From the NCBI GenBank assembly GCA_038279365.1, contig JAYODI010000028.1, positions 1 to 59,408 of the forward strand: DNA of 59,408 bases, given 5' to 3'. The translations under genes were made by a program, and so were the position numbers. Shown in pieces: positions 1,972 to 55,894 of this stretch (positions are counted from its first letter, which is position 1; each line of letters begins with the position of its first letter). The notes beneath the pieces are model-generated. The model searched no databases, was not told the DNA's origin, and was given only the letters and a program-made list of their open reading frames with translations. The stretch is from Candidatus Latescibacterota bacterium (GTDB taxonomy: Bacteria; Latescibacterota; UBA2968).

Positions 1972-3357
1972 ATGGCGCATATACTGGTCATAGACGACGC
2001 CCATGATATTCGAGAGACGCTCTCCAGAGCCTTCTCTGCACACGGCCATACCGTTTCGGCGGCCATAGATGGCGAAGAGGGCCTTCAAGCCATTCAAAAC
2101 AATGCCCATGATCTCATTTTGCTCGACCTGAGCATGCCACGCATGAATGGTATCCAAGTTTTAGAATCCCTCCCCCAAAAACCCCACTTTGATACTCCCA
2201 TCATTATCCTTACCGCACAAGCAGAGCGTGAACGCATTGTTGAATGCTTAGAAAAAGGTGCCAATGATTATATTGTCAAACCCTTCAGTCTCCAAGAGTT
2301 GCTTGCTCGCACACACGTACAATTGCGCCTTCAAGAACTTGAGCGCAAAATTCGCGATTCCGAAGCTTATCATCGCGCCCTTTTTGAACGCTCATCCGAT
2401 CCTGAGATTGTTGTTGCAAAAAACGGTGACATTCGCCAAGTAAATGATGCGGCTTTACACCTGTTATTACTCAAAGATACGGCGCTGATACAAACACCCA
2501 TTTATGATCTTATTGCAGAACAAGATCAGCGCGAGTTCAGCATCGCATTTGCAGGTGCCTTAGAAGGCAGTGACATGCCCATATTTGAAGTGCACCTCAC
2601 CTTGTCCAATCAACGGTTATTACCCGTTGATGTCGACTTGGCATCTGTGAGCATTAACAACGAGCCACATCTTCTCATTCATCTGCGCGACATCAGCCGC
2701 CGCAAATCTGCCGAAGCCCAATCATCTACGATTCTACATCATATAGGTGATGCGGTGGTCATTACCGATCAAAGCGGCATCATTATGATGGCCAGCAGAA
2801 GCGCAGGACACCTCACGGGTTATCCAGAAGACGAACTTATTGGCATAGACATCTCTGAATTTCATACTGGGTCGGAACCCTTCCCATTGGGTACGCTTCA
2901 AAATAACGACTATGTCTATGAAGGCTTATTTAAGCAAAAAAATGGCAATGTCCTTCCTGCAGAGTGGACATTGGCTGCATTTGAAGTAGCTGGCGACACC
3001 TTCTACATAGGCGTTATTCGTAACTTAACAGACAGACGCCAAGCCGAAACACAAAGAATGGAGGCCTCGCGGTTAAAAACGCTCTTGGAAACCGCTGGGG
3101 GGGCCGCCCACGAAATTAATCAACCCCTTACAGCCATATTGGGGTATGCCGAAATGACACAAAACATTTTGGCTGAACACCAAAACGTCCACAAATATCA
3201 GGAACAAATCATTCAAGCAACTTTGCGCATTAACGACATTTTAAAAAAAATGCAAACCATTCGCAGCTATCAAACACGGCCTTATACACTCGGTCATAAC
3301 ATTGTAGATTTCGACCAATCCAGCCAAGAAGAAGGCGGTGCAACCACACAAGAATAG
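1972..3357 (+). CDS. Response regulator receiver-PAS-PAS-HisKA signalling protein with no HATPase domain
   Basis: ILVIDD, LLDLSMPRMNG and YIVKPF receiver motifs; two PAS-like segments; H-box AHEINQPL close to the C-terminus. Confidence 0.88.
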   Translation: MAHILVIDDAHDIRETLSRAFSAHGHTVSAAIDGEEGLQAIQNNAHDLILLDLSMPRMNGIQVLESLPQKPHFDTPIIILTAQAERERIVECLEKGANDYIVKPFSLQELLARTHVQLRLQELERKIRDSEAYHRALFERSSDPEIVVAKNGDIRQVNDAALHLLLLKDTALIQTPIYDLIAEQDQREFSIAFAGALEGSDMPIFEVHLTLSNQRLLPVDVDLASVSINNEPHLLIHLRDISRRKSAEAQSSTILHHIGDAVVITDQSGIIMMASRSAGHLTGYPEDELIGIDISEFHTGSEPFPLGTLQNNDYVYEGLFKQKNGNVLPAEWTLAAFEVAGDTFYIGVIRNLTDRRQAETQRMEASRLKTLLETAGGAAHEINQPLTAILGYAEMTQNILAEHQNVHKYQEQIIQATLRINDILKKMQTIRSYQTRPYTLGHNIVDFDQSSQEEGGATTQE

Positions 3358-3403
3358 GGTCACACCGCCTTTCGCAACACACCAAATTATTTCTGCCTAC
3401 TTT

Positions 3404-4174
3404 TTAAATATTACCCTCACCCTTTCGCAAGCGGTTGATTTTGCTTGCGGCAACTCCCGCACCAAATCCATTGTCGATATTCACCACCGTAACACCCGAA
3501 GCACAACTGTTTAACATACCCAACAGAGCAGCCACACCTTTAAAACTCGCGCCATATCCCACACTGGTTGGCACTGCAATAACGGGTCCCTCGACCAACC
3601 CACCCACCACACTGGGTAATGCCCCTTCCATGCCTGCTACCACCACCACCACACTGGCCGTTGTAAAACGGTCTCGGCTTGCCAACAAACGATGAATACC
3701 AGCAACCCCCACATCGTAGAGCGTTTCAACCTGATTGCCCATCACCCGTGCCGTAACAACGGTTTCTTCTGCTACTGGTAAATCGGAGGTTCCTGCGGCA
3801 ACCACCAAAATAGTCCCCCTTGTTTGCACCACTGGCGTTTCCCCTAATACCACAACGGTGCGGGCCAAATCATGACAGTCGGCATTTTCAAATGCCTGCG
3901 CCAGTGCAGCACGCTTGGCATCATCGGCTCTTGTGGCCAACATAGTAGACCCTGCATCCACAATGCGTTTGGCAATGTCAACCACTTGTGTCACCGTTTT
4001 TCCTTCACAAAATATAACCTCAGGAAATCCTTGTCTAAGGGCTCGGTGGTGATCTATGCGTGCAAACCCCAAATCTTCAAAGGGCAAATTGGTCAACAAT
4101 TGTATGGCCTCATCCACATTCTTCTGACCACTTTGCACAGCTTCTAATAATGCACGTACTCTTTCTGGTGTCAC
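3404..4174 (-). CDS. larB: Nickel pincer cofactor biosynthesis protein LarB (PurE-like)
   Basis: ARIDHHRALRQGFPEVIF, AGTSDLPVAEE, DVGVAGIHRL, PTSVGYG and NIDNGFGA motifs; GTG start abuts the dusB stop. Confidence 0.92.
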   Translation of the reverse strand: MTPERVRALLEAVQSGQKNVDEAIQLLTNLPFEDLGFARIDHHRALRQGFPEVIFCEGKTVTQVVDIAKRIVDAGSTMLATRADDAKRAALAQAFENADCHDLARTVVVLGETPVVQTRGTILVVAAGTSDLPVAEETVVTARVMGNQVETLYDVGVAGIHRLLASRDRFTTASVVVVVAGMEGALPSVVGGLVEGPVIAVPTSVGYGASFKGVAALLGMLNSCASGVTVVNIDNGFGAGVAASKINRLRKGEGNI

Positions 4175-48562: not shown

Positions 48563-49195
48563 CTATAAGCTGTTCAAAGCTTTGCGCGTACCATCACCCT
48601 CCCAATAATTGCGATAGCGCATATCCCACATTTTTTTAAGTTGAGTACGCCCTCTAAAAAGTCTGGATTTCACAGTACCGACAGAGCAATCCAAAACCTC
48701 TGCAATTTCATCATACCCCAATCCATCAATTTCCCGCAAAATAACAGCCACCCGATACTCATTTTGCAACTTTGACAAAGCATGTTCCAACATATATTGA
48801 AATTCACCTGTTTCAACTTGGTTATCCGTTGACTCAGAAGATTCGTATCGATCAAACACACTTTGGCCATCTTCACAAAATTCACTTACCTCTTTTTGCA
48901 CACGAGGCGTCTTGCACCAGTCTTTCCAACAGTTTACACCAATGCGATACAACCAAGTATAAAACTGTGCGCGTCCTTCAAAACCAGGCAATGCACGGTG
49001 CGTTTTTAAGAATGTTTCTTGTGCCAAATCATCTGCTTCGTCCCAATCACCTACCAGTGCGTAGAGCATATTAAAAAGTTGGTGATGATATCTTTTTACC
49101 AACAAAGAAAATGCACCCTGATCACCCTTTTGGGCCAAAAGGATCAATTCATAGTCATCCAGATCATTTTTTTCTAAATCTACGAAGTGTGCCAT
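48563..49195 (-). CDS. ECF sigma factor (RpoE-like)
   Basis: DDLAQETF, FYTWLYRI and LREIDGLGYDEIAE..GTVKSRLFRGR motifs. Confidence 0.92.
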   Translation of the reverse strand: MAHFVDLEKNDLDDYELILLAQKGDQGAFSLLVKRYHHQLFNMLYALVGDWDEADDLAQETFLKTHRALPGFEGRAQFYTWLYRIGVNCWKDWCKTPRVQKEVSEFCEDGQSVFDRYESSESTDNQVETGEFQYMLEHALSKLQNEYRVAVILREIDGLGYDEIAEVLDCSVGTVKSRLFRGRTQLKKMWDMRYRNYWEGDGTRKALNSL

Positions 49196-49499
49196 ATTAC
49201 GCTTTCAATTTTCCAAACACTAGGCGTTACACAGATACAAGTAGTTTGAATTATGGATATTATTCATAAAATTTAAAGAAGTAACTACTCACTTACTTAA
49301 CATAGCTTAATATATACCTTACGTTTTATATGTCAACCCCTTAAAATCCATCTTTCATACATACCACACCGTCCGCTGACACACAAAAAACGATTTAAAA
49401 TTTTTAATAACAATACCTTACTTCACCTACCCACAGATACCAAGAAATTGCCATATTGAAAAAATATGGTTATGCATACAAGTCACACATCGCGCTGAT

Positions 49500-49862
49500 C
49501 TAATTGATTTGTTGCCCTTCTCGCACCACAATTATCTTTTTGGCACCCAAAACGTATCGCACAAACCGCCCATCCCACATTTGGCCATTTTTATACGTGC
49601 CATTACCAATCACCCGCCCACTCTCGTCATAAAATGTCCACTGACCGTGTGGTTCATCATTTGCATAAGCCCCAGCTACTTTGCGGGTGCCATCTTTCCA
49701 ATAAAACTGCCAAAGCCCCGTCTTTTTCCCATTTTTATAAAAACCTTCTTCTTTGATTGTACCATTGGGGTAATGGTCCACAAACGCCCCATCAGATGGC
49801 CCACAAGATACGATCCCCCAGCCACAAAACAAAATAATAAGCAGGCCATTTTTAAGAAACAT
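49500..49862 (-). CDS. MORN-variant repeat (YwqK-like) lipoprotein
   Basis: Lipobox IVSC; repeats YPNGTIKEEGFYKNGKKTGLW. Confidence 0.8.
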   Translation of the reverse strand: MFLKNGLLIILFCGWGIVSCGPSDGAFVDHYPNGTIKEEGFYKNGKKTGLWQFYWKDGTRKVAGAYANDEPHGQWTFYDESGRVIGNGTYKNGQMWDGRFVRYVLGAKKIIVVREGQQIN

Positions 49863-49877
49863 ACCCTTACCTCAAAT

Positions 49878-49910
49878 AAAAAACGCCTCTGAAATCATTC
49901 AGAGGCGTTT
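49878..49910 (-). terminator. Intrinsic terminator-like hairpin between the two MORN genes
   Basis: AAACGCCTCTGAA/TTCAGAGGCGTTT stem. Confidence 0.65.
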
Positions 49911-49915
49911 GCAAC

Positions 49916-50389
49916 TCAACCTTTTAGCGGATTGCCTAAGCGCCCCTGTTTATACTCTCGCCAACCAACCAGTTTGCCATTTTCAAAAAGCTTTTCCGTA
50001 GAATAGTAATACGATGGATCATATTCTTTCCATAGGCCTGTCTTTTTTCCATATAAATATGTGCCTTCGGCCTTTTTTCCACCACTGGGATAATATTCTA
50101 TCCAATACCCGTCTCGCTGCCCATTTGTCCAAGTACCTTCGGCTTGTTTGTTGCCATTATCATGATATAATATTTCAAGGCCATTTTGCATTTTGCCGTT
50201 TTGATAAGTGCCTTGTCCTTTCACCTCTCCCAGTTCATCAAAATAAGTCCAAGTGCCAGATCTTGCACCATTATCATATTCTCCATTTGCAACAATCTGA
50301 CCCATATGTTTAACCTGAACGACGCCTTCAAACCGTTGACACCCAGTAACCATGACCAAGGCAATAAGGGCAATGACCACACGTTTCAT
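49916..50389 (-). CDS. MORN-variant repeat (YwqK-like) lipoprotein
   Basis: GGAGG RBS; MKR..LVMVTGC lipobox; repeats YHDNGNKQAEGTWTNGQRDGYW. Confidence 0.82.
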   Translation of the reverse strand: MKRVVIALIALVMVTGCQRFEGVVQVKHMGQIVANGEYDNGARSGTWTYFDELGEVKGQGTYQNGKMQNGLEILYHDNGNKQAEGTWTNGQRDGYWIEYYPSGGKKAEGTYLYGKKTGLWKEYDPSYYYSTEKLFENGKLVGWREYKQGRLGNPLKG

Positions 50390-50647
50390 GCTACAATCCT
50401 CCCTATTTAAAACCGACCATCGGATCCGTAAAAATAAAACACCATTTGGAATTGAAGATGGTAGAATATAAGCAACCACTCCAAGAACGCAAAGCAAGAA
50501 ACCGACAATATCAGTAAGATAATGATATTAAAAGACTTTTTCACATAGATGAAATTGTTATATTATTTAAGTTTTACAATATATCTCACCCTCAAAAAAA
50601 CAACATTCATACGATTAAACCGATCCGTTAGTTGAATCAACATCCTC

Positions 50648-50673
50648 GTTATTGTATTTAATCTTACAATAAC
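50648..50673. promoter_or_regulatory. Candidate operator upstream of the XRE-cyclase gene
   Basis: GTTATTGTA-N8-TACAATAAC perfect inverted repeat, 28 nt before ATG 50702. Confidence 0.55.
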
Positions 50674-50701
50674 CTACTTTTGCAACGTTCCCAGAATAAG
50701 G

Positions 50702-51439
50702 ATGACCACCATGTTGCTCAGTGAATTGGGTCAACGCATTCGTGCCCAACGCGAACGTTTGGGGCTTAAGCAACACGATATTGCCAATGCCTTACAAGTG
50801 AGCCCTCAAGCTGTATCCAAATGGGAACGTGGAGAAAATGGCCCTGATATTGCCACCTTGGCACCTTTGGCAAAATTATTGGGTGTATCAACCGATTGGA
50901 TATTGGATACACACAACGAAGGGCTAGATGTTTTTGATGCAACTGTATTGGTCTCGGGCGTGGCTGGTACGTATGAAAAATCGTTGCGCATGCCCCCCAA
51001 CGAATTTGCTCTTTGGGCCAATGGTTTTTTATCACAAGTAACAGAAGCCATATTGCGCTTTGATGGTGTGCCTATAAAATACATGGCAGACCAATTTTTA
51101 TGTTTTTTTTCGGGTCCAAATCACTCGCAACGAGCTGCGCGTGCGGCAACCTTGGCCAAACGCCTCATCTCTGAGCAAATTGAAATCGTTTTAAATACGG
51201 GCGAAATATATTTAGGTAGCATAGGACATACCGAATACGCCAACCCCGATATTATGGGAAATGTGGTAAACATTGCTTTTTTAATAAGCCGTGAAGACAT
51301 CAAAACCCAAAGTGGCATCTTGGCAACCCACAAGGTCACCGAAAACTTGGCACCCCAATTTGAAACATTACAAATATTAGAACGTAAATTTTACGGCATT
51401 GAGCACCCAGTTCAAATTTGCGAAATTCGTGAAAAATAA
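50702..51439 (+). CDS. XRE-family HTH fused to a degenerate class III nucleotidyl cyclase-like domain
   Basis: HTH QHDIANALQVSPQAVSKWERG; cyclase-like ATVLVSG, IKYMAD, NTGEIYLGSIG and DIMGNVVNIA. Confidence 0.85.
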   Translation: MTTMLLSELGQRIRAQRERLGLKQHDIANALQVSPQAVSKWERGENGPDIATLAPLAKLLGVSTDWILDTHNEGLDVFDATVLVSGVAGTYEKSLRMPPNEFALWANGFLSQVTEAILRFDGVPIKYMADQFLCFFSGPNHSQRAARAATLAKRLISEQIEIVLNTGEIYLGSIGHTEYANPDIMGNVVNIAFLISREDIKTQSGILATHKVTENLAPQFETLQILERKFYGIEHPVQICEIREK

Positions 51440-51514
51440 AATACTTTTCGTTTTTGCAATATTTCCATCACCTCAAAAAACATTTCGTTTATTCATTTTT
51501 TGAAAGGATTTTTC

Positions 51515-52957
51515 ATGGCAAATGCAACAATCAGCAAAGAAATTCAAATTCCAGACTATTCGGGCCTCGATTATAAAGTTGCCGATATGTCACAAGCAGA
51601 CTTTGGGCGAAAAGAAATTATTATTGCAGAACAAGAAATGCCCGGTTTGGTTGCCGTACGTGAAAAATATGGCAAAGAGCAACCCTTAAAAGGTACGCGC
51701 ATCACAGGTTCTTTGCATATGACCATCCAAACAGCTGTGCTCATAGAATCTCTCAAAGCATTAGGGGCCGATGTGCGCTGGGCATCTTGCAATATTTTTT
51801 CTACCCAAGATCATGCCGCTGCCGGTATTGCAGCCACAGGCATTCCCGTTTTTGCTTGGAAGGGTGAATCGTTGGAAGAGTATTGGGAATGTACCTTGCA
51901 GGCATTAAACTTTCCCGAAGGTGGGCCAACTCTCATCGTAGACGACGGTGGCGACGCAACATTATTGATTCACAGAGGCTATCAAGCAGAAAACGATGCT
52001 TCAATACTCGATGAACCAACCAACAACCGCGAGCTTCGCATCATTAATGCGGTTTTAAAGCGTCAACTCGAGCGCAACCCACGATATTGGCACAATATGG
52101 TTGCAGACATCAAAGGGGTTTCAGAAGAAACCACAACAGGCGTTCATCGCCTTTATCAAATGCACAAAGAAGGCAAACTGCTCTTTCCTGCCATCAATGT
52201 GAATGACTCTGTAACCAAATCCAAATTTGACAACCTCTATGGCTGTCGCGAATCATTGGCAGACGGTATCAAACGTGCCACCGATGTGATGATTGCGGGT
52301 AAGGTGGTTGTCGTTTGTGGGTATGGCGATGTAGGCAAAGGTTGTGCCCATTCAATGCGCAGTTATGGTGCACGTGTTATCGTTACGGAAATTGACCCCA
52401 TCTGTGCGCTCCAAGCAGCAATGGAAGGCTTTGAGGTCACCACGGTAGAAGATGCCTTATCAGAAGGCAATATCTATGTGACCACCACAGGTAACGCCGA
52501 TATCATTCGCATTGAACATATGGAAAAAATGAAAGACCAAGCCATTGTGTGTAACATTGGTCATTTCGATAACGAAATTCAAGTCGAAAAACTGATTGAA
52601 TACCCTGGTATTCAGCACGAAAATGTCAAACCACAAGTAGACAAATATACCTTCCCGACAGGCAACGCTATTTACATGTTGGCCGAAGGTCGGTTGGTGA
52701 ACCTCGGTTGTGCGACAGGTCACCCATCATTTGTGATGTCAAACTCCTTTACCAACCAAGTACTGGCTCAAATAGATCTTCAACAAAATGAGCATGAAAT
52801 TGGCGTTTCTGTTTTGTCAAAACAACTTGACGAGGAAGTGGCACGCTTGCACTTAGAAAAACTGGGTGTTAAACTCACAAAACTCACAAAAGAACAGGCC
52901 GACTACATTGGCGTTCCTGTTGAAGGCCCTTATAAGCCTGATCATTATCGTTATTAG
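51515..52957 (+). CDS. ahcY: Adenosylhomocysteinase (SAH hydrolase)
   Basis: [38 protein letters not shown] and GHPSFVMS motifs. Confidence 0.97.
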
Positions 52958-52966
52958 TCATTTTAA

Positions 52967-53000
52967 AGACGCCCCTGTACTGTTACGTACAGGGGCGTCT
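52967..53000 (+). terminator. Strong hairpin between ahcY and metF with a weak U-tail
   Basis: 14-bp stem AGACGCCCCTGTAC/GTACAGGGGCGTCT. Confidence 0.6.
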
Positions 53001-53058
53001 CTCTTTAACAGAAAAACCCACTCTTCACACCACCCAAATTGCCATCAAAGGTTTTCTT

Positions 53059-53940
53059 ATGCGATTTCCTGAATATTTTCAGAACCCAGAAAAACCTGTT
53101 ATTTCCTTCGAATTATTTCCTCCCAAAACAGATGTGGGCATGCGTACCATTTGTCAAAAGTTATTGCCCAATCTTGCAAAACACAACCCAAGTTACATGA
53201 CGGTCACTTATGGTGCCATGGGATCAACACAAAGCAAAACATTGGAAATTGCCTCGCTGGTAAAAAATGAATTTGGCATAGAGTCGGCCTGCCATCTTAC
53301 ATGCGTGGGGTCATCACAAACTGACATCGACAACACCCTTTCTCAAATACGCGATGCTGGTATTCACAACATTGTTGCCTTACGAGGTGATCCGCCAAAA
53401 GGCTCTGATACATTTATTGCGCCCAAAGATGGCTTTGCTTATGCCAACGAATTGGTTTCTCATATTCGTGCAACCGAACCCAAAGATGCGCCATTTGGCC
53501 TGGCAGTCGCAGGTTATCCTGAAAAGCATATCGAGGCACCCAGCCTCGATTTGGATATCCAAAATCTCAAGCGCAAAGTAGATGCTGGTGGGGACATCAT
53601 CATCACCCAATTATTTTATAACAACAATGACTATTTCAATTTTGTTAAAAAAATTCGTGAAGCAGGCATCCAAGCACCCGTTGTTGCAGGCCTCATGCCC
53701 ATATTGTCTGCCAATCAGATTCAACGCATAACCTCTATGTGTGGTTCTGCCATTCCACCAGATTTGGAAGCCAAATTAAACACAGCCATTGACGACGATG
53801 ACAAAGCAATGGTTATTGGGATCGATCAATGTATTGCACAAGCCACCGAATTGCTCCAAAAAGGTGCCCCAGGCATTCATTTTTATGTGCTTAATAAACA
53901 TACTCACATGGCAGAAATCATGAGCGCATTGCCTCTATAA
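53059..53940 (+). CDS. metF: 5,10-methylenetetrahydrofolate reductase
   Basis: SFELFPPK, VTYGA, HLTC, ALRGD, AGYPE, ITQLF and IHFYVLN motifs. Confidence 0.95.
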   Translation: MRFPEYFQNPEKPVISFELFPPKTDVGMRTICQKLLPNLAKHNPSYMTVTYGAMGSTQSKTLEIASLVKNEFGIESACHLTCVGSSQTDIDNTLSQIRDAGIHNIVALRGDPPKGSDTFIAPKDGFAYANELVSHIRATEPKDAPFGLAVAGYPEKHIEAPSLDLDIQNLKRKVDAGGDIIITQLFYNNNDYFNFVKKIREAGIQAPVVAGLMPILSANQIQRITSMCGSAIPPDLEAKLNTAIDDDDKAMVIGIDQCIAQATELLQKGAPGIHFYVLNKHTHMAEIMSALPL

Positions 53941-54031
53941 ACGAGGTATTTTAAACTTTGTAAATAAAACCAACACACTTATATTGACCTTAAACAAATT
54001 TCTACTTTACCTCACACGAAGGAGACCCTGC

Positions 54032-54382
54032 GTGGAAAAAGTAACCATCTATCACAACCAAAATTGAAGCAAATCGCGAGGCGCGTTAGATATCTTACGC
54101 GACCGAAACGTCGAGTTCGACGTCATTAACTATTTGGAAACACCCGCAACAGAAAAAGAACTCCGAGAATTTCTAAAACTCTTACCTGGTGAACCCAAAG
54201 ATCTGATCCATCCAGGCCCATTTGGTGATCTTGGTCTCAACATAGACGACTTCAACACACCCGATGCACTGGTGGGTTTGCTTTTAGAACACCCCCAAGT
54301 GATGAATCGTCCTGTGTGTATTAGGGGAAATAAGGCTGTTATTGCGCGCCCAGCAGAAAAAATAAACGAAATTCTCGACTGA
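54032..54382 (+). CDS. arsC: ArsC-family arsenate reductase-like protein, probable selenoprotein (in-frame TGA at 54065-54067)
   Basis: AAGGAG RBS then GTG; reads MEKVTIYHNQN*SKSRGALDIL...NRPV...IARP, with the TGA at the HxxxCxxxR catalytic Cys. Confidence 0.82.
54074..54106 (+). promoter_or_regulatory. Candidate bacterial SECIS element
   Basis: GGCGCGT-TAGATATCTT-ACGCGACC hairpin starting 13 nt after the TGA, with an apical G 22 nt downstream. Confidence 0.55.
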
Positions 54383-54390
54383 TTTGATTC

Positions 54391-54433
54391 ACAAAAAAAC
54401 CCGCCACACCCATATGGTATGGCGGGTTTTTTG
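54391..54433. terminator. Bidirectional terminator between the convergent arsC-like and ceramidase-like genes
   Basis: ACAAAAAAACCCGCCA..TGGCGGGTTTTTTGT. Confidence 0.85.
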
Positions 54434-54445
54434 TTTGTAAATATG

Positions 54446-55894
54446 CTACCCCAAAACATCTGCAATCTTTTTAGAAACAGCTTCTATAAGCTTTTCCAAA
54501 CATCCCTTTGCCAAAACAGAAGGCTGTTCCTGATATAATCCTTTGCCATAACAATCTTCTTCTAACAAATACCCGACATTCATAGGCCCCACCAAAGGGG
54601 AAAACACAATCGTCACCTCGGGAAAGCGAGCGCGCAACACGCGTTGAATATAATTATAGGGCTCCCCTCCCGTAGTCACCCAAATGGCATCTCCCATTCG
54701 CAACACCGAAAAAAACATAGGATATGTTTTACCTTCGGGCAAATCCACAACCTTTCCCGCCCAACGCAAAGCACGCTCAGCTTGTGCACCCGCATCACGT
54801 GCCGCAATCACATCGCCTTTTTCATCTGCTTCGTGTTGCTTTTGACGCCAAAAATCTATTTTTTCGTTCAATTCATCCACTGTTGGCAAATCAATATAGG
54901 GCAAATCAACCCGAAACACACCCCCGCCAAATTGAGACACATTGTCCATCCGCATTCCCGTTGCTTCTACATATGCCCAAGTACCCAAAGTCGCGCCAGA
55001 GACCACTGGGCCTTGATATTTAAAATCTGTCTCTGGTGCCCCCATAGAAGCCAACGCAGACAATGCCGCATAGCCTAATTGACGCCCATTCTTATCTGCA
55101 ACCTCAATATCTCCCACAAAACCATCTCGCGGGCCCAAATCACCACAGGCACCCAAAGCAAATACACAAGGCATGCCAGTTTCTTTTTCGACAACCTCAC
55201 GCATTGCGCCAACATAATCTGGGCTAATTAAGGTATTCTCCCAGGCCAATGTGGTTGGGTGACAAGCATAATTGACAACCGAACAAATTCCCTTTCCCAA
55301 GCGATCAGTCAAACGTGCCACCACAACCGTATCATCGGCCACACCTTCAGGATTAAACCCACACATAAATCCTTTGTTTTCTTCATCCCAATAATCCCGA
55401 TTACCCGCCATATTGCACCGACCAACAGCATAGGTAATAATAGCCTCCTGCATCCCCTCAACGGCTGTTTGTGCACCACGGCGCAGTTGGTCTTCCAATT
55501 CTTCAATGTAGGGTTCTATCAATTCTCCACCTGGCAAATTGAGCCGGTTTTTCACAGGAAAACAAGCAGAATGTGTGTGTGAAACAGCCAAAATTACCTG
55601 TTCGGGCAATACATCGGCTCCGTCACAAACAGATTGAACCAAAGCATCGTAATAGGCAGGATCTACAAAACCACAGGCATCCATTTGCACGCGAACAAAG
55701 GGTTTTGCTCGCTCTTGGCTCATATCTTGAAAAGCCATAATTTCGGCGGTTAATGAGCGATGTACGCCCGTTGCTTGATGATGTCGCGCAGCCCCCCAAA
55801 GCGGGTGATAAATACCTATTGGCGGTGTGATATCTCGCCGTGACAATCCAAATAAAACCCGCGACATCGGTGTTTTCACCATTGTATTTTCCAT
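54446..55894 (-). CDS. Neutral/alkaline ceramidase-like (CDase N-terminal domain) Zn amidohydrolase
   Basis: DITPP, SHTHS, NYACHPT, ISPDYVG and GACGD motifs. Confidence 0.78.
   Translation of the reverse strand: MENTMVKTPMSRVLFGLSRRDITPPIGIYHPLWGAARHHQATGVHRSLTAEIMAFQDMSQERAKPFVRVQMDACGFVDPAYYDALVQSVCDGADVLPEQVILAVSHTHSACFPVKNRLNLPGGELIEPYIEELEDQLRRGAQTAVEGMQEAIITYAVGRCNMAGNRDYWDEENKGFMCGFNPEGVADDTVVVARLTDRLGKGICSVVNYACHPTTLAWENTLISPDYVGAMREVVEKETGMPCVFALGACGDLGPRDGFVGDIEVADKNGRQLGYAALSALASMGAPETDFKYQGPVVSGATLGTWAYVEATGMRMDNVSQFGGGVFRVDLPYIDLPTVDELNEKIDFWRQKQHEADEKGDVIAARDAGAQAERALRWAGKVVDLPEGKTYPMFFSVLRMGDAIWVTTGGEPYNYIQRVLRARFPEVTIVFSPLVGPMNVGYLLEEDCYGKGLYQEQPSVLAKGCLEKLIEAVSKKIADVLG

Follow-up and report, generated by a model that had tools for sequence, protein, structure and literature searches.

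A predicted one-component regulator with an XRE-type helix-turn-helix and a degenerate class III cyclase domain upstream of ahcY and metF in a Latescibacterota genome

The gene that directly precedes ahcY and metF on a contig of a Candidatus Latescibacterota bacterium (GenBank assembly GCA_038279365.1, contig JAYODI010000028.1, positions 1 to 59,408; the whole 59,408-nucleotide stretch is here called the window) encodes a protein that joins an XRE-type helix-turn-helix (HTH) to a degenerate class III cyclase domain. This protein is very probably a transcription factor of the S-adenosylhomocysteine (SAH) cycle genes, acting through a conserved 40-bp element that can be recognized from comparison of upstream sequences. 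It would thus be a one-component, metabolite-sensing regulator of the methyl cycle whose type of sensor domain is not known in that role, and which by descent is an XRE HTH joined to a class III cyclase homology domain, belonging neither to the SahR family nor to the SAH riboswitches. The three genes concerned lie on the same strand in the following arrangement.

50711-51439, forward strand: regulator gene, 242 amino acids plus stop, with an XRE HTH and a cyclase-fold domain.
51515-52957, forward strand: ahcY, S-adenosylhomocysteine hydrolase (TIGR00936, 624.8 bits against a cut-off of 497.6; Pfam AdoHcyase).
53059-53940, forward strand: metF, methylenetetrahydrofolate reductase (TIGR00676, 307.4 bits against a cut-off of 293.7).

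The stop codon of the regulator gene is separated from ahcY by 75 nucleotides, and ahcY from metF by 101 nucleotides. An alternative in-frame ATG at 50702 would add three residues, giving a 245-residue reading of the regulator, but the start at 50711 is favoured and the length of 242 residues adopted, because the equivalent second ATG is used in all 120 homologues listed. The original prediction for this locus, made from the DNA letters, placed an XRE HTH and a class III cyclase-like protein directly 5' of, and co-oriented with, ahcY-metF, and the HTH_3, fold and TIGR matches agree with that description. It had also recognized no S-adenosylmethionine (SAM) or SAH riboswitch upstream, and an Rfam covariance-model scan of 49800-54200 likewise returned none at E<=1, the two matches within that limit (a rimP leader on the other strand, and rivX) being weak and unrelated.

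The domain structure of the regulator is summarized as follows.

50738-50902, forward strand: XRE-type helix-turn-helix domain (Pfam HTH_3, 59.7 bits against a cut-off of 23).
50927-51433, forward strand: degenerate class III cyclase homology domain (sequence searches, AlphaFold2 model, Foldseek and family profile).

The HTH takes up the N-terminal 70 residues, and the HTH_3 match (E 2.8e-16) covers residues 13-67 of the 245-residue reading. Conservation was followed in two alignments, one of 21 close family members (A1) and one of 19 mixed sequences that include distant subfamilies (A2), and the HTH recognition region is invariant in both. The A1 profile matches the N-terminal domain of the P22 c2 repressor (E 2.2e-11), as well as the HTH domains of the 434 repressor. 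When the regulator protein was compared with Pfam and NCBIfam, the HTH alone was found and no curated whole-protein family was matched; all the HTH families were of the XRE type, with no ArsR-type domain in either database, and the NCBIfam matches to phage repressor and antitoxin families were sub-threshold and ran through the HTH only.

The C-terminal half of the regulator is a class III cyclase fold by homology and by structure. The window's protein itself lies below the Pfam threshold for PF00211 (Guanylate_cyc), with no match at E<=0.1, and precomputed matches place PF00211 in some of its relatives. A phmmer search with the C-terminal 176 residues alone, against 1.84 billion representatives, recovered 1180 proteins at E<=0.001, including long multidomain proteins (E 1e-9 to 1e-6), and canonical cyclase motifs are present in all four long relatives that were aligned. 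Compared with solved cyclases, the A1 profile matches Cya2 (2w01, E 1.6e-10), CyaB (3r5g, E 3e-9), CyaC (1wc0, E 9.6e-6) and 4p2f (E 1.6e-5). In addition, an AlphaFold2 model built on A1 (mean predicted local distance difference test, pLDDT, 82.0; predicted template modelling score, pTM, 0.64) was compared with the PDB by Foldseek, yielding at least 190 matches at E<=0.001. Class III cyclases make up every match listed, the top ones spanning E 1.3e-10 to 5e-7, with 2w01 at E 2.9e-10 (TMt 0.69) and 4wp9 at TMt 0.82.

Homology to cyclases raises the question of whether the residues of the active site are kept. Positions were compared in a HMMER alignment to 2w01 and in an alignment with five cyclase-type sequences, namely a GAF-cyclase encoded in the same genome and the four long relatives; numbering follows the 242-residue protein, and the functional roles are those that we take these positions to have from the cyclase literature.

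50957-50959, forward strand: codon of G83, first metal Asp position; Asp lost, Ser in most relatives.
51077-51079, forward strand: codon of K123, purine-selecting Lys; kept.
51089-51091, forward strand: codon of D127, second metal Asp; kept.
51248-51250, forward strand: codon of D180, second purine-selecting position; Asp kept.
51269-51271, forward strand: codon of N187, transition-state Asn; kept.
51281-51283, forward strand: codon of L191, transition-state Arg position; Arg lost.

The first metal Asp is absent from the ahcY-linked members, and Arg is found at position 191 in none of the sequences of A1 or A2. D127 is invariant in the 21 close relatives, the GD motif that holds it has become GP or GA in the subfamilies linked to purA or adjacent to an aldolase gene, and two subfamilies in A2 have lost both the second Asp and the Asn. 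The purine-selecting positions present the opposite picture, K123 being conserved in at least 90% of A2 and D180 being invariant there, distant subfamilies included. K123 aligns with a Glu of the guanylyl cyclase Cya2 and with a Lys of other cyclases, and D180 with a Gly of Cya2 and a Thr of other cyclases. As an internal control, the GAF-cyclase of the same genome (locus L005, contig C41, 1402-3012, reverse strand; PF00211, 89.1 bits) keeps all of the canonical catalytic residues. By these alignments the domain falls short of cyclase competence at the first Asp and at the Arg, and selection appears to have kept the adenine pocket rather than catalysis. The residue-by-residue reading of the original prediction, in which the first metal Asp and the Arg of the NxAxR motif were replaced while the adenine-selecting Lys and Asp, the second Asp and the Asn were retained, is borne out at G83, L191, K123, D180, D127 and N187, respectively. 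Its proposal that triphosphate chemistry was lost and the adenine pocket kept fits a pattern that holds family-wide.

Folding of two copies of the regulator, a step that the original prediction had suggested, gave a predicted symmetric homodimer joined through the cyclase-fold domain. The homodimer scored 0.80, against 0.00 for the best of three controls; in the calibration, 20 of 30 proteins whose structures are same-chain pairs attained the mark, as did 1 of 23 whose structures are single chains. At least 82% of contacts recur between runs, the pLDDT of the partner is at least 85, and the predicted interface includes residues 123-126, 180 and 182-187. SAH was included in the folding but was unscored, the calibration set being one without small molecules.

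The regulator belongs to a large family. Among 1872 candidates, 829 proteins are homologous at E<=0.001, and the best 120 of the 829 share 54-100% identity across at least 87% of the length. Database names include 'helix-turn-helix domain-containing protein', 'transcriptional regulator with XRE-family HTH domain' and, from JGI, 'class 3 adenylate cyclase', and the organism labels include Latescibacterota, Hydrogenedentes/Hydrogenedentota, Sumerlaeota, Omnitrophica and Gemmatimonadota; ESM Atlas clusters point further to Planctomycetota, Verrucomicrobiota and Chloroflexota, as leads only. Within the phylum of the window, the gene is present in 28 of 168 genomes (E<=1e-30), and 21 of these 28 have ahcY as the next gene downstream. 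In five other carriers, which belong to another family, the stop codon of the regulator gene overlaps the start of a threonine synthase gene (thrC; TIGR00260, 217.6 bits against 167.1), and the remaining two have too little flanking sequence. A metagenome set of 80 loci fetched with A1 contained 35 with a full-length relative, of which 31 were assessable. In this set ahcY is directly downstream at 15 loci (14 by script, plus L047) and directly upstream at one (L059), and the hosts are diverse, since the linked AhcY proteins are only 40-83% identical to that of the window. At a regulator identity of at least 53%, 12 of 13 assessable metagenome loci are ahcY-linked, as against 2 of 18 by script below 53%. 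The presence of metF after ahcY was found by tblastn of the loci only in the window and at locus L001. The original prediction turned on linkage of the homologues to methionine-cycle genes, and that linkage is strong, ahcY adjoining the regulator gene in 21 of 28 genomes and at 16 of 31 metagenome loci.

Relatives that are not linked to ahcY have other neighbours. For instance, purA is the next gene downstream at three loci (L045, L049 and L050), and a small open reading frame (ORF) followed by thyX lies downstream at three more (L053, L055 and L060); this small ORF of 123-129 codons is conserved and has no Pfam match (L053, 4501-4869; L055, 6750-7136; L060, 1983-2351). One relative precedes metE-metF, with metH divergent (L062), another a DEAD-box helicase gene (L048), and a third a true adenosine deaminase gene (L003; TIGR01430, 310 bits). 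Five loci (L051, L054, L056, L057 and L064) have neither an operator box of the type described below nor a telling neighbour, a class II aldolase gene being convergent and a PLD-like gene upstream, and three more (L065, L066 and L068) lack both a box and a clear context.

Two further arrangements were seen before ahcY. At locus L070, only the HTH part (residues 1-86) matches, at 1808-2065, some 95 nucleotides before ahcY (2161-3552), and the gene may be truncated, split or frameshifted. In the two sister genera that lack the regulator (L199-L202; genomes G066, G068, G069 and G070), an ORF of about 400 codons ends just before ahcY, and its N-terminus resembles MetK (SAM synthetase) by eye.

A second line of evidence comes from the DNA upstream of the regulator gene. 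De novo Gibbs alignment of the 180 nucleotides upstream of the gene in the window and at 15 ahcY-linked loci returned one 40-bp element common to all 16 regions, located 87-112 nucleotides before the start codon. The element consists of two 15-bp imperfect palindromes of the form TCAAC-N5-GTTGA, with starts 21 bp apart and with a 3' half that is degenerate in most copies. In the window, the predicted boxes and the putative promoter are positioned as follows.

50616-50630, forward strand: predicted distal operator box; imperfect palindrome of 15 bp whose 5' half has one mismatch.
50637-50651, forward strand: predicted proximal operator box, abutting the TTG of the -35 and 21 bp (start to start) from the distal box.
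50652-50680, forward strand: putative promoter, with -35 TTGTAT (50652-50657), a 17-nucleotide spacer and -10 TACTTT (50675-50680).

A position weight matrix (PWM) of the 40-bp element, which holds 36 bits of information, scores 46.3 bits at 50615-50654, the top match in the 6.03-Mb genome, and a PWM of the proximal 20-mer scores 25.2 bits at the regulator's own site, the best of 12.06 million positions. The element also precedes regulator genes outside the training set, including those linked to threonine synthase (L026-28, 34.4 bits), three others (L048, 28.1 bits; L061, 26.6 bits; L032, 19.9 bits) and the purA-linked genes (L045, 41.1 bits; L049, 31.1 bits; L050, 21.4 bits), and the thyX- and metE-linked relatives have perfect palindromes of the same half-sites.

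The transcript would be expected to start near 50687, which would place the centres of the boxes near -43 and -64. A TAnnnT hexamer occurs 16-18 nucleotides after TTGnnn at 14 of the 16 training loci, compared with 104 of 2286 offsets used as controls in these sequences, and a -10 in register with the box is likewise present at 14 of 18 non-training targets. By our own count each promoter hexamer of the window matches 3 of 6 positions, for which reason a consensus promoter scan leaves the proposed site unlisted, and the promoter call rests on positional conservation instead. The promoter looks like a sigma-70 type with a weak -35.

Metatranscriptome contigs from four libraries of four studies cover the regulator gene and ahcY at 95-100% identity. 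Since these libraries are available as contigs only, they cannot prove a start or a single transcript, and the parts that they leave uncovered, such as much of metF in libraries X1 and X2, are uninformative. The interval 50400-50641 is without cover in all four libraries, and the first contig starts at 50700, 50703 or 50706 in three of the studies, in one case with an adapter-like loose end just before it. These starts fit transcription beginning shortly after the proposed -10, but as a weak hint. In library X4, overlapping contigs (51253-51466 and 51446-51596) span the junction of the regulator gene and ahcY.

The 40-bp matrix was also run over both strands of the whole genome (G000). The second-best match, at 30.5 bits (contig C18, 16162, reverse strand), lies 109 nucleotides before a 452-codon adenosine deaminase-family gene, whose product matches Pfam A_deaminase (E 2.3e-23) and falls below the NCBIfam equivalog cut-offs. 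The third, at 18.8 bits (contig C20, 13349, reverse strand), lies 116 nucleotides before metH, and all other positions score 17.6 bits or less. Elements before the deaminase-like gene score 33.6, 27.6 and 22.9 bits in three other genomes (G063, G043 and G044, respectively). The metH site is in register with a TTG-N17-TAnnnT promoter, and the corresponding sites in two sister genomes score 31.3 and 27.3 bits; it is credited because of its position, promoter register and conservation in the sister genomes. In a further lineage (L003), a double box made up of a perfect palindrome and a proximal box of 21.4 bits is found between the regulator stop codon and the adenosine deaminase gene, and the ahcY of that genome, at a distance of about 15 kb, is not preceded by a box within 1.5 kb.

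In the case of genus g6, presence of the regulator coincides with presence of the metH site. Of the 15 genomes that have the regulator, 14 carry a box about 110 nucleotides upstream of metH, and none of the six that lack the regulator does, the sites being a perfect palindrome of the half-sites abutting a TTG, and the best scores upstream of metH in the six regulator-less genomes are -18.8 to -25.2. These six all have ahcY, directly preceded by the MORN-lipoprotein gene that flanks the regulator gene elsewhere. They fall at three places on the MetH tree, so that the joint absence of regulator and site arose more than once or was moved by recombination. On its contig, genome G065 lacks the upstream sequence. 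At metH in this genus (loci L123, L125, L128, L129, L133, L134 and L137), the box-bearing upstream region of the relatives is absent from the six regulator-less genomes and from G089, which has the regulator; read by eye, the upstream stretches of metH in G089 and G081 are alike, and G080 seems to have an open frame that stops immediately upstream of metH. The two upstream forms do not follow the MetH tree, which suggests recombination.

A wider scan with the proximal PWM found 126 of 12.06 million genome positions at 14 bits or more, and 61 matches at 16 bits or more. Among the latter, a -10 in register together with a gene start within 250 nucleotides is found only at the regulator's own site, at metH and at position 31721 of contig C141 (forward strand). 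The last of these, a single proximal-type box of 16.5 bits with a -10 in register, is treated as unsupported and could be either a further member of the regulon or due to chance; the gene that starts 72 nucleotides after it (locus L206, 314-2431) encodes a 705-residue protein with Mur-ligase and RimK ATP-grasp domains. Control of the methyl cycle, as put forward in the original prediction, thus gains a predicted operator that ties the regulator to ahcY(-metF), metH and adenosine deaminase genes.

Taken together, these observations suggest a mechanism that we consider likely as a whole, in which a dimeric one-component regulator governs the clearance of SAH. A dimer joined by the cyclase-fold domain would place its two HTH domains on each palindrome, and the two boxes, being two helical turns apart, would lie on the same face of the DNA. 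Binding to the element is itself a prediction, drawn from a fold, a residue pattern, gene linkage, element positions and a dimer that were each computed. The predicted regulon would comprise the enzymes that break down SAH and those that remove its products, with AhcY converting SAH to adenosine and homocysteine, adenosine deaminase removing the adenosine, and MetH and MetF removing the homocysteine, so that the targets would jointly pull SAH hydrolysis forward. The degenerate cyclase domain, which would no longer synthesize cyclic AMP (cAMP), may use the adenine pocket at the dimer interface to sense an adenosyl metabolite, and a ligand bound there could shift the relative position of the two HTH domains. 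SAH would be the most economical signal, because the targets together drive its hydrolysis, and it is put forward tentatively, as a choice falling slightly short of an even chance. The outcome would be ligand-dependent activation of the class II type, with positive autoregulation of the regulator-ahcY-metF operon. Class II activation is favoured because the proximal box abuts a weak -35 in a fixed register across operons. There is precedent among the repressors of the lambda cI, P22 c2 and 434 type, which activate PRM from about -42.

The sign of control is where the first alternative departs from this mechanism. The same protein, sites and regulon might instead belong to a SahR-like repressor that blocks RNA polymerase at the -35 and is released by its ligand. 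SahR is a repressor (PMC4239095). In the window, the proximal box runs up to the TTG of the -35, so that steric hindrance is possible, and two sites 21 bp apart permit cooperative binding. Most proteins of the XRE family, moreover, are repressors. However, the boxes lie wholly upstream of the core from -35 to -10, and in one register across operons and lineages, an arrangement typical of class II activators, whereas the sites of repressors vary in position; in addition, the -35 hexamers are poor beyond the TTG. On balance, repression seems unlikely, and the regulator is somewhat more plausibly an activator.

The identity of the ligand is the subject of a second alternative, in which the sensor would bind adenosine or another adenine compound (SAM, methylthioadenosine, AMP or ATP) rather than SAH. 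The conserved pocket residues would select for adenine only, adenosine deaminase is a direct predicted target in two lineages, and purA follows the regulator gene at the three loci noted above. Against this, ahcY is by far the commonest target and is joined by metH and metF, and SAH explains all four targets. Induction of ahcY by adenosine alone would also be without obvious logic, as the equilibrium of the enzyme favours SAH synthesis. A ligand other than SAH is thus rather doubtful.

The cyclase-fold domain could also be a dimerization module and nothing else, the regulator being ligand-independent or controlled in another way. The predicted interface does pass through this domain, and a role for a ligand is an interpretation of the pocket; yet a pure dimerization module would not be expected to keep the purine-selecting K123 and D180 while losing catalytic residues, which makes this explanation improbable. 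A still-active nucleotidyl cyclase with unusual residues, coupling cAMP synthesis to DNA binding, is more improbable by far: the window's protein does keep the second Asp, Lys, Asp and Asn, and some relatives bear the JGI cyclase label, but the first metal Asp and the Arg are missing from ahcY-linked members, subfamilies have additionally lost the second Asp and Asn, and true cyclases of the same genome and library keep all of their catalytic residues. Finally, an ordinary XRE regulator or antitoxin-like protein that stands beside ahcY by chance, as sub-threshold NCBIfam matches through the HTH might have it, is scarcely credible, being contradicted by the linkage in genomes and metagenome loci and by the conserved operator that accompanies it.

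Several observations weigh against the proposed activator of SAH clearance. The promoter call suffers from poor hexamers and from the want of an established promoter type for this phylum, and a box that abuts a -35 could also repress. By score alone the metH site of this genome, at 18.8 bits against 17.6 for the next position, is no outlier. The g6 metH sites score just -3.9 to 9.0 bits with the 40-mer matrix, their distal box being unfitting, and of the 14 sites, 3 were rescored with the proximal PWM (14.1-19.4 bits) and the other 11 were read by eye; the g6 genomes are kin and not independent, and no P value is given for the co-occurrence. Genome G089 has the regulator and a metH with the other upstream form, which lacks the site. 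No element precedes the deaminase-like gene in G064, which has the regulator, or in any g6 genome, and scans with the 40-mer and the proximal box found no site before metK in the window's genome. The dimer score may reflect memory of solved class III cyclase dimers. Adenosine or an adenine nucleotide would fit the links to adenosine deaminase and purA no less than SAH would, and a single ligand for all members of the family is unlikely, given neighbours as varied as purA, thyX, thrC, a DEAD-box gene or none that is telling. With these points taken into account, the interpretation offered in the original prediction is supported to the extent that computation allows.

Upstream of the operon, the opposite strand (48563-50497) carries a gene for an extracytoplasmic function (ECF) sigma factor at 48563-49195 and a pair of MORN-repeat genes at 49500-49862 and 49916-50497, the latter with a lipoprotein signal match. 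The rimP leader match mentioned above, to a gammaproteobacterial family, is located between the two MORN-repeat genes at 49831-49941 (reverse strand), and at 32.1 bits (E 0.019) is below the gathering threshold of 47. Downstream, at 54130-55894, an ArsC-family ORF (54134-54382, forward strand) overlaps an antisense ORF of 111 codons, and beside it is a 482-residue protein that only just passes the cut-off for neutral/alkaline ceramidase (32.4 bits against 32.1). The GC skew is negative in all 2-kb bins of the window (-0.08 to -0.32), and least so at 50001-54000, the site of the three forward-strand genes.

How the regulator compares with known systems can be judged first from SahR. SahR is described as a SAH-responsive repressor of the ArsR family in Alpha- and Deltaproteobacteria and some Gammaproteobacteria, with a core regulon of sahR, ahcY, metH, metF and metK; it autoregulates, acts through 20-bp palindromic operators, and its presence tracks the AhcY route of SAH recycling (PMC4239095). 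The same text describes a SAH riboswitch that precedes ahcY, and often metF, and responds to SAH (PMC4239095). The regulator of the window resembles SahR in its predicted autoregulation and in its control of ahcY, metH and metF through a shared palindromic operator. It is nevertheless unrelated to SahR and SamR, having an HTH_3 domain, no ArsR-type domain and a cyclase-fold sensor, whereas the sensor of SahR is reportedly a methyltransferase-like domain. The operators differ as well, SahR repressing from a 20-bp palindrome, whereas two 15-bp boxes upstream of a -35 suggest activation here, and the predicted regulon lacks the metK of SahR but adds adenosine deaminase. The SAH riboswitch controls the same type of operon, ahcY with metF, but is an RNA element rather than a protein.

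The closest relatives of the two domains are found elsewhere. With the class III cyclases (PF00211; Cya2 2w01, CyaC 1wc0, CyaB 3r5g and Rv1625c 4p2f) the regulator shares fold and homology, the purine-selecting Lys and Asp, the second metal Asp and the Asn and, in its model, a predicted head-to-tail type of dimer with the purine pocket at the interface. It differs in the missing first Asp and Arg, in its sub-threshold Pfam match, and in its partners, a fused DNA-binding domain and linked SAH-cycle genes in place of signalling domains. For the HTH, the closest solved structures are the N-terminal domains of P22 c2, 434 and lambda cI, repressors that bind palindromes as dimers; these proteins sense RecA through a LexA/S24-like C-terminal domain, whereas the window's regulator has a cyclase-fold sensor and metabolic targets. 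Rv0386-type mycobacterial cyclase-ATPase-HTH proteins also combine a cyclase domain and an HTH in one protein, but with an active N-terminal cyclase and a C-terminal LuxR-type HTH. In mammalian adenylyl cyclase, a degenerate second site is re-used for a regulator (forskolin), in an active enzyme and not in a transcription factor. Full-text literature searches, from which most subscription journals were outside coverage, found no description of an XRE and cyclase-fold regulator or of such control of ahcY, in keeping with the original prediction, which knew of no described regulator of this architecture.

A broader proposition, for which the chances appear evenly balanced, is that these proteins form an undescribed and widespread class of one-component regulators, mostly of uncultured phyla, in which an inactive cyclase domain acts as an interface sensor of adenosyl metabolites and drives class II activation of ahcY, metH, metF and adenosine deaminase, with sister subfamilies of the same HTH and operator type re-targeted to purA, thyX, metE and thrC. 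SAH strongly inhibits SAM-dependent methyltransferases (PMC4239095), and its removal therefore matters to the cell. The finding bears, in addition, on how 'class 3 adenylate cyclase' labels in genome annotation are to be read. To our knowledge, control of ahcY is largely unknown outside the Proteobacteria and the groups that bear riboswitches, and if the proposal is true the family would fill this gap for several poorly studied phyla. It would then represent a third independent solution to SAH-responsive control, after an ArsR-type protein and an RNA, and a clear case of a cyclase fold turned into the small-molecule sensor of a transcription factor. Taken together, its subfamilies would amount to a set of sensors serving the methyl cycle, one-carbon metabolism and adenine metabolism.

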